In this document: one piece after another, positions 22,006-54,830 of the stretch
Layout: every line of letters starts with the position of its first letter
How positions within the stretch are numbered: the stretch's first letter is position 1
NCBI GenBank assembly: GCA_951406725.2
Contig: OX597837.1
Coordinates: 5,704,001 to 5,768,000, forward strand
DNA from: Octopus vulgaris
Lineage: Eukaryota
Length of the DNA stretch: 64,000 nucleotides
Direction of reading: 5' to 3'
Translations under genes and position numbers: made by a program
Notes under the pieces: generated by a model
Told to the model about the DNA's origin: nothing
The model's database searches: none
The model's input: only the letters and a program-made list of their open reading frames with translations

Positions 22006-22318
22006 GTGGAGGCGCAATGACCCAGTGGTTAGGGCAGCGGACTCGTGGTCGTAGGATCGTGGTTTCGATACCCAGACCGGGCGTTGTGAGTGTTTATTGA
22101 GCGAAAACACCTAAAGTTCCACGAGGCTCCGGCAGGGGATGGTGGCGATCCCTGCTGTACTCTTTCGCTACAAGTTTCTCTCACTCTTTCTTCTGTTGGC
22201 CTGCTCAATTAGCCAGTGGAGTGGCGTCATTTGAAGGCTAAAACAATGCGAAGCGCATTGTGACCAGCGATGTGTACGAACATCTGATAGCCTGGTCGGT
22301 CACGGTGATCATGGTGAT
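22006..22318 (+). mobile_element. tRNA-headed SINE B with alternative tail Y
   Basis: First ~185 bp match 25347-25535; the 3' part is unrelated to tail X. Confidence 0.85.
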
Positions 22319-22605
22319 ATATATATATATATATAACATTTATAGAAATATACCGTAATATATTTGCAAATATGAGTTTAGGGATGCGTATGAACAAATT
22401 TGTACAGGACAAATGCTAAATTTATATGGAAATATTTCTGTGTATATAAATATGTATCTTTATATACATGTACCCCTTATTCACATAATCACCGAACCTG
22501 GAACTTAACTATGGTCTATCTATAGCACTTATTTGGCATTACCTGACCCCCTTGGGTCTCAATGACACTATTACCTCTTATAACCTCTCTCTCTATATAT
22601 ATATA

Positions 22606-22644
<39 letters not shown>

Positions 22645-22696
22645 TATGCATTTATATACTCATGTACATATATATATGTATATACATATATATATG

Positions 22697-22742
<46 letters not shown>

Positions 22743-23004
22743 CAATTAAGGACAACTACTTAATAAGGAAAACTTAACAAGAAATTGTAGGTAGATAGCG
22801 TGAAAACCTCATAAGAGAATAAATTTCGAAAATAATTATTTCTTATTGAACATATTAATTTATATATAGAGGGCATTATACATACATGCCAGCGGGCATT
22901 ATACATACATGCCACACGCTAAGAGGGACAATTAGTCATTTCTACCAAAAAATATTACTAATCCCACCGAGTGCAATTTTTCAAAGTAAGACATTTAAAA
23001 ATAT

Positions 23005-23052
23005 AGACCTGTATCACAGTGATTTCATACTTACGTACTCATCAGCAGGCCT
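23005..23052 (-). ncRNA. Type I hammerhead ribozyme (inverted copy)
   Basis: Exact reverse complement of 23256-23303. Confidence 0.85.
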
Positions 23053-23255
23053 GAATGTATCATACATAAACAAACGACCCTGCCCCGCTTAAGTCGATCA
23101 GCTAACTGATCAACATCAACGAAGCACATGGGTGTAAAAGTATGCCATTTACAGGATGTAATATATGTAAACTCACCCATGTGCTTCGTTGATGTTGATC
23201 AGTTAGCTGATCGACTTAAGCGGGGCAGGGTCGTTTGTTTATGTATGATACATTC

Positions 23256-23303
23256 AGGCCTGCTGATGAGTACGTAAGTATGAAATCACTGTGATACAGG
23301 TCT
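23256..23303 (+). ncRNA. Type I hammerhead ribozyme
   Basis: Stem I AGGCCTG/CAGGTCT; core CTGATGA; stem II GTAC-GTAA-GTAT; GAAA; palindromic stem III ATCAC-T-GTGAT; cleavage triplet AUA (after 23296). Confidence 0.9.
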
Positions 23304-23734
23304 ATATTTTTAAATGTCTTACTTTGAAAAATTGCACTCGGTGGGATTAGTAATATTTTTGGTAGAAATGACTAATTGTCCCTCTTAGCGTGTGGCATGT
23401 ATGTATAATGCCCGCTGGCATGTATGTATAATGCCCTCTATATATAAATTAATATGTTCAATAAGAAATAATTATTTTCGAAATTTATTCTCTTATGAGG
23501 TTTTCACGCTATCTACCTGACAATTACTTGTTAAGTTTTCCTTATTAAGTAGTTGTCCTTAATTGCTAAATTTTTATTCCGAAAAAACTTTTCCTCTCCC
23601 GAAATGCAATTCGTAAAAGTATGCCATTTACAGGATGTAATATATGTAAACTCACCCATGTGCTTCGTTGATGTTGATCAGTTAGCTGATCGACTTAAGC
23701 GGGGCAGGGTCGTTTGTTTATGTATGATACATTC

Positions 23735-23782
23735 AGGCCTGCTGATGAGTACGTAAGTATGAAATCACTGTGATACAGGTCT
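23735..23782 (+). ncRNA. Type I hammerhead ribozyme (tandem copy)
   Basis: Identical to 23256-23303; predicted cleavage after 23775. Confidence 0.9.
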
Positions 23783-24224
23783 ATATTTTTAAATGTCTTA
23801 CTTTGAAAAATTGCACTCGGTGGGATTAGTAATATTTTTTGGTAGAAATGACTAATTGTCCCTCTTAGCGTGTGGCATGTATGTATAATGCCCGCTGGCA
23901 TGTATGTATAATGCCCTCTATATATAAATATATATATATATATATATGTATGTATATATATATACATATGCATGTATATATGTATATATACATATATAAG
24001 TATGCCTATGTGCATGTATCTATACGTGTGTGCGTTACCTTTCGGGATGGCAATTTTTTTGTGAAATAAACATACGCAACAAATTCATAAACGTATACAG
24101 ATGCATGTTCATACACACACACACACACGCACAGACACACACACACATATATATATACATACATATATATATATACATATATATACATAGATATACATAT
24201 ACATATATACGTACATACATACAA

Positions 24225-24286: not shown

Positions 24287-24812
24287 GAATAAGGGTAGAA
24301 ATTGATATTAATCAATAAAAACCAGTGGCCTAGCATATTAAAAAAATCCGAAGATTAAAATATTTTTTACATACAAAATTTAAAGGACTGACCACTAAAA
24401 ATGGACGGTCAATATGCTAGATATAGACGTCAAAATCGCTATTTTCCGCGAAGAATGTGTTCTCAAGAAAAGATATACATAACTATAATTTGTTGAACTC
24501 TATGTATGCGGGACTCCGGTCAAACGTTATGTATCTAGTTTTGGAAATTATGTTTGTATACGACAGACTATACTGATGAGCTTGCAGATTTTCGCGTATG
24601 CATATACGTGAATATTAACAAGTGAAACTGATCGGTACATAGGTAATCGTTTTTATTTCGTATATTTTCATTTGTCTTGCTTATTTTTTTACACTTTGGT
24701 TTTGTGCTGAGTTTTTTCTTGAGAACACATTCTTCGTGGAAAATAGCGATTTTGACGACTATATCTAGCATATTCACAGTCCACTTTTAGTGGTCAGTCC
24801 TTTAAATTTTAT
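24281..24812 (+). mobile_element. TA-flanked Penelope pLTR-like element with ~97-bp inverted arms (24375-24471 / 24714-24810)
   Basis: Arms are imperfect reverse complements; a hammerhead lies between them. Confidence 0.75.
24568..24642 (+). ncRNA. Type I hammerhead with extended stem II
   Basis: CTGATGA, GCTTG...ttcgcgtat-gcat-atacgtgaa...CAAGT, GAAA, self-complementary ACTGATCGGT, GUA site; stem I ctat/atag with a mismatch at the first pair. Confidence 0.7.
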
Positions 24813-25346
24813 ATATATGCAAACACACATATACTGTCGCACAACCCAGCGCACTTATTAAATAAGCAGCACAAAGCATTCTTCCCATGTGTTCATAGTT
24901 TCCACAAAACTTTTACATTTTACGACAAATCGAAATACTTTAAGACTACAACCTCTGTATTGCTATCAAACTCTTTGTTTTCAGATTATATGATATAGAG
25001 TACAGATATGACATAAGCTTGGTATTAACTTAATGAAATTAGTATATTTACATTATCATCACATTGCTTCATATTATACATTCTTACTTTATTTTGTTTT
25101 CACTTAATTACTATTTCTACCTTTCACCTAGCTTATAATTTATGTAACAGCTATCAGAATTAAATCCTGCTTAAACTAAACTGTATACACTTAACTTACC
25201 ACAATTTTCAGTCATCATTTTTATTTACTTTATTCCATCATTGATATTGTATCTGTTCTATTCAGCATTATTTTATTTATTTCATTCTTATGTTTTATAA
25301 ATGCTTCGATTCGAATCTAGTGATAACTCATATTATATTAAGTAAG

Positions 25347-25729
25347 TGGAGGCGCAATGGCCCAGTGGTTAGGGCAGCGGACTCGCGGTCGTAGGATCGC
25401 GGTTTCGATTCCCAGATCGGGCGTTGTGAGTGTTTATTGAGCAAAAACACCTAAAGCTCCATGAGGCTCCGGCAGGGGATGGTGGTGATCCCTGCTGTAC
25501 TCTTTCCCCAAAACTTTCTCTCACTCTTACTTCCTGTTTCTGTTGTACCGGTATTTCGAAGGGCCGGCCTTGTCACACTCTGTGTCACGCTGAATATCTC
25601 CAAGAACTACGTTAAAGGTACACGTGTCTGTGGAGTGCTCAGCCACTTACACGTTAATTTCATGAGCAGGCTGTTCCGTTGATCGGATCAACCGGAACCC
25701 TCGTCGTCGTAACCGACGGAGTGCTTCCA
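25347..25729 (+). mobile_element. Full-length tRNA-headed SINE B + tail X
   Basis: tRNA-like head (tggcccagtggttagg...gtttcgattcc); 13-bp TSD tatattaagtaag at 25334-25346 and 25730-25742. Confidence 0.92.
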
Positions 25730-31314: not shown

Positions 31315-31785
31315 CGCGGAGAAGGGCAGCAAAAGGCGGCGAAGTGTGGCGAAGGCAGCGAAATGCGGCGATGGGTGGCATAGGGCGACGAAGAGCGGCG
31401 AATAGCGGTGAAGGGCGGTGAAGGGCGGTGAAGGGCGGTGAAGGTCGTCGAAGGGCGGCGAATGCAGCGAAGGGCGCCATCGGGTTGCGTAGGGCGGCGT
31501 AGGGCGGCGTAGGGCGGCGTAGGGCGGCGTAGGGCGGCGTAGGGCGGCGAAGTGCGGCGAAGTGCGGCGAAGTGCGGCGAAGTGCGGCGAAGTGCGGCGA
31601 GGGCAGTGAAATGCGGTGATGGGCGGCAAAGTGCGGCGAAGAGCGGTGAAGGGTAGCGAAGGTCGTCGAAGGGCAGCCAATGCAGCGAAGGGCGGCGAAT
31701 GCAGCGAAGGGCGCCGCCGGGTGGCGTAGGGCGGCGTAGGGCGGCGTAGGGCGGCGAAAGGTGTCGTAGGGTGATGAAAGGGCAA
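31315..31785. repeat. GC-rich 10-bp minisatellite (AGGGCGGCGT / AAGTGCGGCG / AAGGGCGGTG)
   Basis: Blocks of variant decamers seen directly. Confidence 0.9.
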
Positions 31786-35980: not shown

Positions 35981-36285
35981 GAGGAGGCACATAGCCTAGT
36001 GGTTAGAGCAGCGGACTGGCGGTCGAGGTATCGTGGGCTCGAATCTCAGACCGGGTGATGTGTGTGTTTATGAGCGAAAACACCTAAGCTCCACGCGGCT
36101 CCGGCAGAAGGTAATGGCGAACCTCTGCTGACACTTTCGCCACAACTTTTCTCTCACTTTTTCCTCCTGCATCTTGCATCTCACCTGCGACGGACCGGCG
36201 TCCCATCAAGGTGGGGAACCTATACGCCACGGAAACCGGGAAACTGGCCCTATGAGCCAGGGATGGCTATAGAAGGCTCAAACAA
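35981..36285 (+). mobile_element. SINE B-type head + tail Z
   Basis: 10-bp TSD gatgaaaatc (35971-35980 and 36286-36295); same family as 47811-48121. Confidence 0.9.
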
Positions 36286-47624: not shown

Positions 47625-48420
47625 TTAGCGGTATTTCGTCTGTCTTTGCGTTCTGAGTTCAAATTCTGCCAAGGTCGACTTTGTCTTTCATCCTTTAGAG
47701 GTTGATAAATTAAGTACCAGTTGCTTACTGAGGTCGATCTATTCGACTGGCTCTCCTCTCTCAAAAATGTTGGGCCTTGTGCCTAGAGTAGAAAAGGTAT
47801 TTCGTCTGTCGTGGAGGCACATGGCGTAGTGGTTAAAGCAGTGGACTTGCTGTCGAGGGATTGCGGGTTCGAATCTCGGACCGAGCAATGCGTGTGTTTA
47901 TGAGCGAAACACCTAAGCTCCACGCGGCTCTGGCAGAAAGTAATGGCGACCTTCTGCTGACTTTTTCGTCACAACTTTCTCTCACTCTTTCCTCCTGCGT
48001 CTTGCAGCTCACCTGCGACGGATCTGCGTCCCGTCCAGATGGGGAACCTATACGCCAATGAAATTGGGAAACCGTCCCTTATGAACCAGGCGTGGCTCGA
48101 GAAGGAACAAACAACAACAACATTTCATCTGTCACTAGGTTCTGAGTTAAAATTCTGCCGAGGTCGACTTAGCCTTTCATCCTACCGGCGATCGATGTAA
48201 TAAGTACCAGTAGAACATTGGGTCCATGTAATCGACTAGCCCCTCCCCCAAAATTTCCGGCTTTTGTCATATTCTGTGTCATGCTGAATCTACTTGAGAA
48301 CTATTTGAATCACACGCATGTCTAAGGTATATTCAGCCATTCGCAAGTTAATTTTACGAGCTGGTTGTTCCTGTACGGATCAACTGGAACAAGTCATCAT
48401 CGTATCCAGCGAAGTGCCAT
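47625..48420 (+). mobile_element. Tandem SINE C units; the second is interrupted by a B/Z SINE and ends in tail X
   Basis: ggtatttcgtctgtc at ~47630 and ~47796; C body continues at 48134 and joins tail X near 48260. Confidence 0.75.
47811..48121 (+). mobile_element. SINE B-type head + tail Z, nested
   Basis: TSD atttcgtctgtc / atttcatctgtc (47799-47810 and 48122-48133); (AAC)n tail. Confidence 0.9.
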
Positions 48421-48448
48421 TTTTTAAAAAATCGTATAAATAATATGT

Positions 48449-48820
48449 TGAGGCGCAATAGCCCAGTGGTTAGGGGAACGGAATCGTTTGTCGTAGGATC
48501 GCGGTTTCGATTCCCAGACCAGGCGTTGTAAGTGTTTATTGAGCGAAAACACCTAAATCTCCACGAGGCTCAGGCAGGTAGGAGGTGGCGAGCCCTGCTG
48601 TATACTTTCACCACAACTTTCTCTCACTCTTTCTTCCTTTTTCTGTTGTACCTGTAGTTCAAAGTACCGGCCTTGTGACACACTATGAATCTCCCCGAGA
48701 ACAACGTTAATGGTACACGTGACTGTGGAATACTCAGCCACTTGCACTTTAATTTTACGAGAAGGCTGTTCCGTTGATCGGATTAACTGGAAATCTCATC
48801 ATCGCAACCGACGGAGTGCT
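48449..48820 (+). mobile_element. SINE B + tail X
   Basis: Aligns end to end with 25347-25729. Confidence 0.9.
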
Positions 48821-49855: not shown

Positions 49856-50270
49856 AATATATTTTTTATATATTTTTTATATATTTTATATATATTTTTT
49901 ATATATTTTTTATATATTTTATATATATTTTTTATATATTTTATATATATTTTTTATATATTTTTTATATATTTTATATATATTTTTTATATATTTTATA
50001 TATATTTTTTATATATTTTTTATATATTTTATATATATTTTTTATATATTTTATATATATTTTTTATATATTTTTTATATATTTTTTATATATTTTTTAT
50101 ATATTTTATATATATTTTTTATATATTTTATATATATTTTTTATATATTTTTTATATATTTTATATATATTTTTTATATATTTTATATATATTTTTTATA
50201 TATTTTTTATATATTTTATATATATTTTTTATATATTTTTTATATATTTTTTATATATTTTTTATATATT
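49856..50270. repeat. Pure-AT array of TATATA + T-run units (10-12 bp)
   Basis: About 410 bp with no G or C. Confidence 0.95.
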
Positions 50271-52429: not shown

Positions 52430-53060
52430 AATATTGGTTTCGAAATCTGGCTCAAGACCAGGAAGCTCCGTGTGGAAATAAGACGATTAGATCACCATCA
52501 AGTGATCAAATGATATTTATGTATATCGAACACAAAAGGACGGAACTCAAAGTTGCCCTCAGCAGAATTTGAACTCATAACATAAAGACAGGCGAAATGC
52601 GGCTAAGCATCTTAGTTGGCATGGTAATGATTCTTATTTCTTTACTGCCCACAAGGGGCTACACACAGAGGAGACAAACAAGGACAAACAAACGGATTAA
52701 GTCGATTATATCGACCCCAGTGCGTAACCGGTACTTAATTTATCGACCCCGAAAGGATGAAAGGCAAAGTCGACCTTGGCGGAATTTGAACTCAGAACGT
52801 AGCGGCAGACGAAATACCTATTTCTTTACTACTCACAAGGGGCTACACACAGAGGGGACAAGGACAGACAAACGGATTAAGTCGATTATATCGACCCCAG
52901 TGCGTAAGTGATACGTATTTAATCGACCCCGAAAGAATAGAAGGCAAAGTCGACCTCGGCGGAATTTGAACTCAGAACGTAGCGGCAGACGAAATACCTA
53001 TTTCGTTACTACTCACAGGGGGCTACACACAGAGGGGACAAACAAGGACAGTCAAAACGG
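52430..53060 (-). mobile_element. Head-to-tail SINE family C array
   Basis: Unit ends tatttc.ttact at ~52636, 52819 and 52999 (period ~180 bp), plus an older copy on the left. Confidence 0.9.
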
Positions 53061-54579: not shown

Positions 54580-54619
<40 letters not shown>

Positions 54620-54622
<3 letters not shown>

Positions 54623-54695
54623 ATAGAGGGCATTATTACACATAAATGCCTCACACTAGGAGGGACAAAGTCATTACTACCAAAATTACCAAAAT
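54620..54695 (-). mobile_element. Diverged fragment related to the 22.7-kb retrozyme family
   Basis: tatagagggcattattacacataaatgcctcacactaggagggacaa.gtcatt aligns to 22864-22950; TA-flanked. Confidence 0.6.
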
Positions 54696-54830
54696 ATATA
54701 TATACATACATATAAATCTATTGCTATAGTTATAGCTAGATACATATGTATATAACTATATCTATATAAAATTTTATATGTATGTATGTATACATACACA
54801 TACATATATACGTACACACATACATGTAAA

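Follow-up and report, generated by a model that had tools for sequence, protein, structure and literature searches.

A tandem hammerhead repeat in the Octopus vulgaris genome and its probable mobilisation by a Penelope-type enzyme

A short tandem repeat of Octopus vulgaris, which carries one hammerhead ribozyme motif per unit and lies inside a (TA)n microsatellite, is best explained, with a probability of roughly 0.85, as a retrozyme that is non-autonomous and owes its mobility to a Penelope-type enzyme. The whole element spans positions 22740 to about 23925 of the window, a term that designates here the entire stretch of 64,000 nucleotides analysed, and consists of an inverted arm followed by 1.7 tandem units. 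Between its three pieces (inverted arm, unit A and partial unit B), the only differences are one substitution and two 1-nt gaps: a single 1-nt insertion in B is the sole difference between the two units, and the inverted arm (22740-23134) is the reverse complement of 23174-23568 with one substitution and one 1-nt gap. An earlier, sequence-only reading had proposed a recently inserted retrozyme with a tandem, non-coding 479-nt unit, and this proposal is upheld by the lack of a long ORF, by self-pairing, by dispersed arrays and by a covarying hammerhead; its placement of the element's start at 23134 was wrong, the true start, that of the inverted arm, being at about 22740. The parts of the locus, and one relative within the window, are listed below.

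22594..22741, no strand: left (TA)n microsatellite flank, the likely target (Tandem Repeats Finder)
22740..23134, minus strand: inverted arm, unit positions 41 to about 435, whose 3' end is site B, facing outward into (TA)n
23005..23052, minus strand: third hammerhead, within the inverted arm, same sequence as the other two
23134, no strand: head-to-head arm junction with a 1-nt overlap (gap of -1)
23134..23612, plus strand: full 479-nt unit A
23256..23303, plus strand: hammerhead 1, type I, from sequence and covariation (stem I 23256-62/23297-303, core 23263-69, stem II 23270-81, GAA 23282-84, stem III 23285-95)
23297..23775, plus strand: predicted 479-nt monomer between the two predicted cut sites, 34% GC, without a long ORF
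23438..23455, plus strand: internal site A, a TATATA run at unit about 305-322, one of the two fixed 3' ends of the family
23560..23577, plus strand: internal site B at unit about 427-444, the second of these fixed 3' ends
23613..23925, plus strand: partial unit B, which covers unit positions 1 to about 313 and stops at site A, abutting (TA)n
23735..23782, plus strand: hammerhead 2, same sequence as hammerhead 1, with a predicted cut after 23775
23919..23998, no strand: right (TA)n microsatellite flank (Tandem Repeats Finder)
54586..54708, minus strand: older lineage member, 76-82% identical (E 9.5e-21), a 3' fragment that stops at site A, abutting (TA)n

Hammerheads 1 and 2 each comprise a 7-bp stem I (with one G-U pair), CUGAUGA, a 4-bp stem II with a GUAA loop, GAAA, a palindromic stem III and an AUA cleavage site, and the predicted cuts after 23296 and 23775 would delimit 479 nt. 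A scan of both strands of the 64-kb window revealed only three hammerheads, two on the plus strand and one on the minus strand, and agrees with the sequence itself on the two identical type I motifs 479 nt apart that had been claimed. Their description as canonical was slightly generous, given that pair 10.1-11.1 is G-U and that Rfam does not report the motif (no match at the gathering score, and no hammerhead family among 34 weak matches). By its sequence, the motif has the attributes of a type I hammerhead: a CUGANGA/GAAA core, three stems, an NUH site and covarying stems.

The conservation of these stems was followed at two depths. Among 12 diverse members, 94.6% of cells were paired, versus 22-42% in slid controls, and 8 of 14 pairs had changed on both sides; the shuffle control used for this covariation ignores relatedness, and two of the five measures failed to exceed shuffles (75 and 209 of 500). 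In 53 distinct hammerheads from fetched loci, stem I pairs 1-6 were kept in 43-51, with changes on both sides, and pair 7 in only 20; stems I and II covaried across subfamilies. The cut-site base, which had been left free in the search pattern, was A in 32, C in 19, U in 2 and G in none; the core and stem III were fixed by that pattern, and their constancy is therefore no evidence. Variation per base amounted to 0.0105 within the hammerhead and 0.0242 in the rest of the unit.

Folding energies lend the motif a less straightforward character. Two 48-mers cofold best as a crossed double hammerhead (-30.5 kcal/mol, versus 2 x -9.4 kcal/mol for active monomers), and in a single 48-mer an inactive core/stem III pairing (-12.4 kcal/mol) beats the catalytic fold (-9.4 kcal/mol). 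For the stretch 23200-23830, the inactive, dimeric and monomeric folds were computed at -183.1, -178.4 and -175.0 kcal/mol, which places the catalytic folds, in terms of energies only, 3-8 kcal/mol above the inactive one. The double form thus lies below the single forms, but the inactive fold is lowest, which makes the dimer idea reasonable and slow cleavage likely. It had been suggested that a 1-nt stem III loop favours dimeric folding: the preference for the dimer over the monomer is recovered by computation, but a 1-nt loop is sterically impossible, so that a monomer would fold with 4 bp in stem III and 3 nt in its loop, and the misfold is more stable than either. In these models, the hammerhead is likely most effective in the double form, assembled from two adjacent units, and its predicted self-cleavage is likely slow. 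In the parts of the frog study drawn on here (10.64898/2026.07.22.740005), one of nine predicted retrozymes cleaved.

The longest ATG frame in the closed monomer has 50 codons, hence its description as non-coding, and no Penelope-like element (PLE) protein match was found within the 64-kb window. A check of the monomer fold, proposed in the earlier reading, indicated strong self-pairing (-144.4 kcal/mol, z -8.33, with none of 100 shuffles as stable), and site B lies directly 3' of a long predicted hairpin. In a computed read-through transcript entering from the left, hammerhead 1 is wholly paired with the inverted arm in a hairpin of roughly 395 bp; with its ribozyme buried in this manner, the copy at 22740 to about 23925 is probably a product rather than a source. 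An internal 23-nt duplication (23393-23436, unit 260-303) is present in this subfamily only and missing from sister subfamilies. Site A includes a TATA-box-like run (23442-23449), like the pLTRs described in passages of PMC3846280, and this run may double as a promoter and a priming site.

The older relative announced at 54.6 kb is real, although it is a 3' fragment and has no hammerhead. The window is also rich in microsatellites (Tandem Repeats Finder), and harbors a dispersed repeat in five copies (22006-22310, 25346-25538, 35983-36166, 47811-47994 and 48447-48636; 76-92% alike over about 190 nt), the head of which resembles a tRNA-derived SINE. Further features include a MITE-like element at 24368-24817, with 104-nt inverted repeats that are 93% complementary and 242 nt apart; a GC-rich 10-nt tandem repeat of about 43 copies at 31316-31758, in a window that is otherwise AT-rich; and two further repeats at 52635-53041 and 49857-50270, a tandem duplication of 180 nt and an 11/22-nt minisatellite rich in AT.

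The search for relatives covered 2.8 Gb in 227 contigs. The best 39 of 1,262 candidates yielded at least 201 matches to the unit, and the full-length matches among those listed were 92-100% identical. The exact 38-nt hammerhead occurs in 337 copies genome-wide, whereas the reversed pattern has none, which rules out chance; with stem II left free, 462 copies were found, and with stem II, N7 and loop III free, the wider lineage comprises 2,157 hammerheads, the reversed control being zero in both cases. These figures supply the genome copy number that had been proposed as a check. The exact motif recurs at a spacing of about 480 nt in arrays, of which the largest holds about 32 units, and divergence within this long array is 0.0006 over overlapping pieces. 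At G000:C1:64639800-64655250, one inverted arm is accompanied by about 31 near-identical tandem units, with an end at A on one side and at B on the other. Sister subfamilies are 64-90% alike to the unit, with an unchanged layout. A sister retrozyme family, with a long stem II and a 2-nt loop III, is more numerous (3,635 candidates; L093:3395-4400, L165-L194), and one of its subfamilies has a perfect 12-nt stem III palindrome. The family to which the locus belongs is young and dispersed, and, together with the near identity of the copies, this bears out the recent insertion that had been suggested.

Evidence as to mobilisation comes from the ends of the copies. A total of 54 independent insertions were classified, 16 from the best-scoring matches plus the long array and 38 from hammerhead matches on contigs C1-C4. 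Two outward-pointing arms were present in 41, and in 36 of these both ends coincided with fixed sites (in the other five, one end lay elsewhere). The two sites, A at unit position about 313 and B at about 435, are offset by about 120 nt, and all 36 insertions with both ends fixed combined one A with one B, A+A and B+B being absent; by simple arithmetic, an independent and even choice would give this outcome with a probability of 2^-36. The 13 one-armed insertions ended at A in eight cases, at B in four and elsewhere in one. Flanks were TA-rich in most of the 54, and in a (TA)n tract a target-site duplication would be legible only by comparison with empty-site alleles. The 5' ends of arms, by contrast with the fixed 3' ends, were scattered round the unit, and junctions often overlapped by 1-6 nt, the short overlap at 23134 being of a kind common among the inverted loci listed. 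Partial and inverted copies with different end points had been noted in the earlier reading: the copies are real, but their ends fall at two fixed sites in strict pairs.

A spread at the DNA level, as a satellite or minisatellite propagated by rolling-circle DNA or unequal exchange with the hammerhead as a passenger, could have contributed to long homogeneous arrays, which may have grown by unequal exchange after insertion. As an account of the family it is most improbable, in that it gives no reason for fixed 3' ends, for (TA)n targeting or for A+B pairing, all of which, together with the scattered 5' ends, match target-primed reverse transcription by a PLE. In the preferred reading, a non-coding RNA of 479-nt repeats would likely be copied into (TA)n by a Penelope-like enzyme acting in trans. 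A GIY-YIG endonuclease would nick both strands of the (TA)n tract, and two reverse transcriptase (RT) molecules would use one DNA end each as a primer, starting at RNA site A in one case and at B in the other; each would copy a variable length, often exceeding one unit, and the two cDNAs would be joined head to head through a few overlapping bases.

A potential source of such an enzyme exists in the genome, in the form of an intact RT and GIY-YIG element with a 781-aa ORF, an upstream ORF and 504-bp pLTRs. The 781-aa ORF has an RVT_1 match just below the curated cut-off and a GIY-YIG match, and its CX4CX2C motif before the endonuclease fits, at the level of sequence, the Neptune or Nematis clades as described in passages of PMC8557442. 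The two end sites of this element, both facing (TA)n, are separated by 40 nt, and its second arm ended at its own A site in all six B-ended copies with a visible second arm; these six (five of 16 fetched copies plus L076) had been selected for the B end, so that A+A could not appear among them. Published passages give the one-sided tail of endonuclease-bearing (EN+) PLEs as 30-40 bp (PMC8557442, PMC3846280) and trace it to two RT start sites combined with two-strand cleavage (PMC11167929). The element at L065:1244-6460 (G000:C6:133.34 Mb) and its relatives form a young two-ORF Penelope-like family (479 aa and 781 aa, RT/GIY-YIG) with many intact copies, and carry, close to the end of the pLTR, a variant hammerhead-like motif with U for C3. 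A second and larger PLE clade (L255-L304; 14,163 candidates) has open frames of up to 894 aa, and no TA run was seen within 1.4 kb of the endonuclease in its ten long-frame copies L285-L294.

The target, the head-to-head arms and the tail rule are the same as in autonomous elements, which raises the question of whether the units could simply be serving as pLTRs in an ORF-bearing Penelope-like element that left the copies as 5'-truncated insertions, as the sequence-only reading had itself allowed. The inspected loci number about 100 out of a lineage with 2,157 hammerheads, PLE fragments lie nearby in four of 40 regions, and at L131 a piece of the family and a decayed RT fragment are separated by 15 nt of TA. 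This RT fragment stops mid-frame at a fold-back and a TA run, however, and no ORF continuous with the unit was found in the 40 regions, in 30 sister-family loci or in 30 lineage loci. The absence of continuity with a Penelope ORF across these roughly 100 loci leads to the classification of the element as a non-autonomous, non-LTR retrozyme. The units, moreover, stand head to tail with nothing between them in up to about 32 copies, and the sampled pLTRs of two PLE clades are unrelated to them in sequence. That sample consisted of about 64 GIY-YIG loci, fetched from at least 148 matches in the best 150 of 6,136 candidates, and of about 50 loci of the second clade, for which the best 150 of 14,163 candidates were scored, Naiad-type elements lying outside it; the fetched loci shared no sequence with the lineage, and a lineage profile gave nothing significant against the sampled pLTRs (best E 0.35 and 1.1). 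It is consequently very unlikely that the units are pLTRs of this kind, while an ancient descent of the unit from a pLTR is possible. A protein search with the 781-aa ORF returned 865 close relatives and nothing leading to other clades. An AT-rich likeness of 77 nt between the unit and the pLTR of the 781-aa element (score 52, versus about 30 for shuffles) was rejected, given that only three of 14 lineage members beat all shuffles and that it is out of register with the ends.

As regards the RNA template, a linear cleaved monomer was rejected, as none of 100 arms starts at unit 162-166 (seven start at 160-180, P 0.15). The cut site is crossed by 79 of 100 arms, and 49 exceed one unit; since arms run through the cleavage site, the template would be either a ligated circle or an uncleaved multimer, for which the odds are about even. 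Seven arm starts at unit 40-47 form a cluster that was noticed post hoc and is not claimed as a finding. A common source for both arms of an insertion is suggested by 11 locus-private alleles that they share, but divergence within a locus is smaller than the distance to the nearest other locus in just 19 of 49 loci.

These observations evoke the possibility that the ribozyme no longer matters, and that linear uncleaved multimers from long arrays are copied with neither monomer nor circle being formed. The frequent crossing of the cut site, at which no arm starts, would be expected in such a case; the inactive fold is predicted to dominate, source arrays of sufficient length exist, and passages of PMC11167929 report that hammerhead mutants had no effect on insertion in vitro, with unprocessed RNA as the main template. 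Against a loss of function stand compensatory stem I and stem II changes across subfamilies that are about 65-70% alike, the absence of G at the cut site in 53 variants, the lower variation of the hammerhead relative to the rest of the unit, and the circles made by mussel and coral retrozymes (passages of PMC7229834). On balance, a dispensable ribozyme is considered rather unlikely.

Hints at the level of RNA come from sequencing runs, all in the form of contigs, for which the label "RNA" is a computational guess, none being recorded as RNA. RNA-like contigs span the unit, read through the cut site and wrap around with a period of 479-480 nt, an appearance that a circle and a tandem transcript would share. 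In three RNA-like runs of organism B, A>G and T>C places numbered 15/0, 17/0 and 10/1; four of seven smaller runs (X1, X2, X4, X19) had no clear A>G excess, and a large DNA-like run had 3/1 and lacked G at most of these sites. The 17 A>G sites chosen for their rarity or absence in DNA are all preceded on the 5' side by U or A, versus 99 of 136 for all A, and most fall in predicted helices; six sites were left out, five of them variable in DNA and one (23397) being the main letter in organism B. This combination of 5' neighbour and helix resembles the signature of ADAR editing. As the DNA-like run has a different species label and its sequence departs from G000 at some sites, sense-strand A-to-I editing, limited to the hammerhead strand, is retained as a hint; the restriction of A>G to that strand is unlike passive read-through of two-armed copies. 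Genomic copies had no excess of fixed RNA edits (five A>G versus six T>C among 27 locus-private alleles), and A275G, present in all five pieces of L160, coincides with an A>G site of the RNA-like contigs. One RNA-like contig of run X8, at a depth of 2.6, carries G at core position A15.1 (23764), where 136 of 136 genomic pieces have A; this may be an error or an inactivating edit.

A fuller version of the Penelope-type reading can be formulated on this basis, in which a closed 479-nt RNA, cut by double hammerheads and edited by ADAR on its own fold, would be copied round by the two subunits of a PLE dimer, placed on two start sites 120 nt apart of one and the same circle. Every insertion would then be a two-armed rolling-circle copy, with one subunit per nicked (TA)n strand, and the one-A-one-B rule, if this were true, would represent an asymmetric Penelope step unseen in vitro. 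This version is put forward tentatively, at somewhat less than even odds.

The questions addressed by these data are how retrozymes re-enter the genome and how the inverted arms and one-sided tail of PLEs originate. The published link between retrozymes and PLEs rests on co-occurrence and sequence likeness; the family described here offers a countable footprint (A+B in 36 of 36) on a 479-nt RNA, with a long and easily scored offset, in a genome with intact RT and GIY-YIG elements that could be expressed. It could thus serve as a compact substrate for the study of two-strand priming, of circle versus multimer templates and of the role of the hammerhead. The class of element is already known, and the locus is a further member of it; no description of a cephalopod retrozyme was found in the open literature, the scope of a search that did not extend to subscription papers, supplements or repeat databases.

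In L1 twin priming, two primers at one target generate a 5'-inverted insertion joined by microhomology, and the second primer starts at variable internal sites; in the octopus family, by contrast, the start sites are both invariant, and neither arm is limited to one unit in length. Plant LTR retrozymes have a type III hammerhead, a PBS and a PPT, whereas the octopus element is type I and tandem, without an LTR layout. A close likeness is that to the metazoan non-LTR retrozymes of Cervera and de la Pena (2020; PMC7229834), which, in the passages used here, have one type I hammerhead per short tandem unit, low GC, no ORF, a self-paired monomer and forms ranging from dimers to long multimers, and among which that of the axolotl has a similarly short stem III that perhaps needs dimeric folding. 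The octopus unit, at 479 nt, is just above the 150-450 bp given in that source, whose passages describe neither inverted arms nor microsatellite targets; circles have been shown for those retrozymes and are hypothetical for the octopus element. With these provisos, the element corresponds at the level of sequence to a metazoan non-LTR retrozyme as these passages define one.

The frog retrozymes of Li, Clavereau and Pollet (2026; 10.64898/2026.07.22.740005) are, in the portions of that report cited here, likewise tandem hammerhead repeats that lack autonomy, in a genome where EN+ PLEs abound, and the 479-nt unit is within their range of 51-972 bp. Their link to PLEs consists of co-occurrence and pLTR similarity, with no mollusc sampled according to those portions, whereas the octopus link is one of insertion anatomy. 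The element fits the proposal, made in the same portions, that animal retrozymes derive from PLEs and are themselves non-autonomous.

The likeness to EN+ PLEs themselves, as depicted in passages of PMC8557442, PMC3846280 and PMC11167929, includes an inverted, 5'-truncated, head-to-head arm, an extension at one end and an AT-rich or (TA)n target, as well as two RT start sites and the cutting and extension of both strands in vitro (PMC11167929). The octopus unit differs from these elements in that it encodes neither RT nor endonuclease, and its A-B offset of about 120 nt exceeds the published tail of 30-40 by a factor of three to four. Finally, the relevant passages of PMC11167929 record no difference between the strands as to the start site in vitro, whereas the two ends of the octopus element differ in 36 of 36 insertions.
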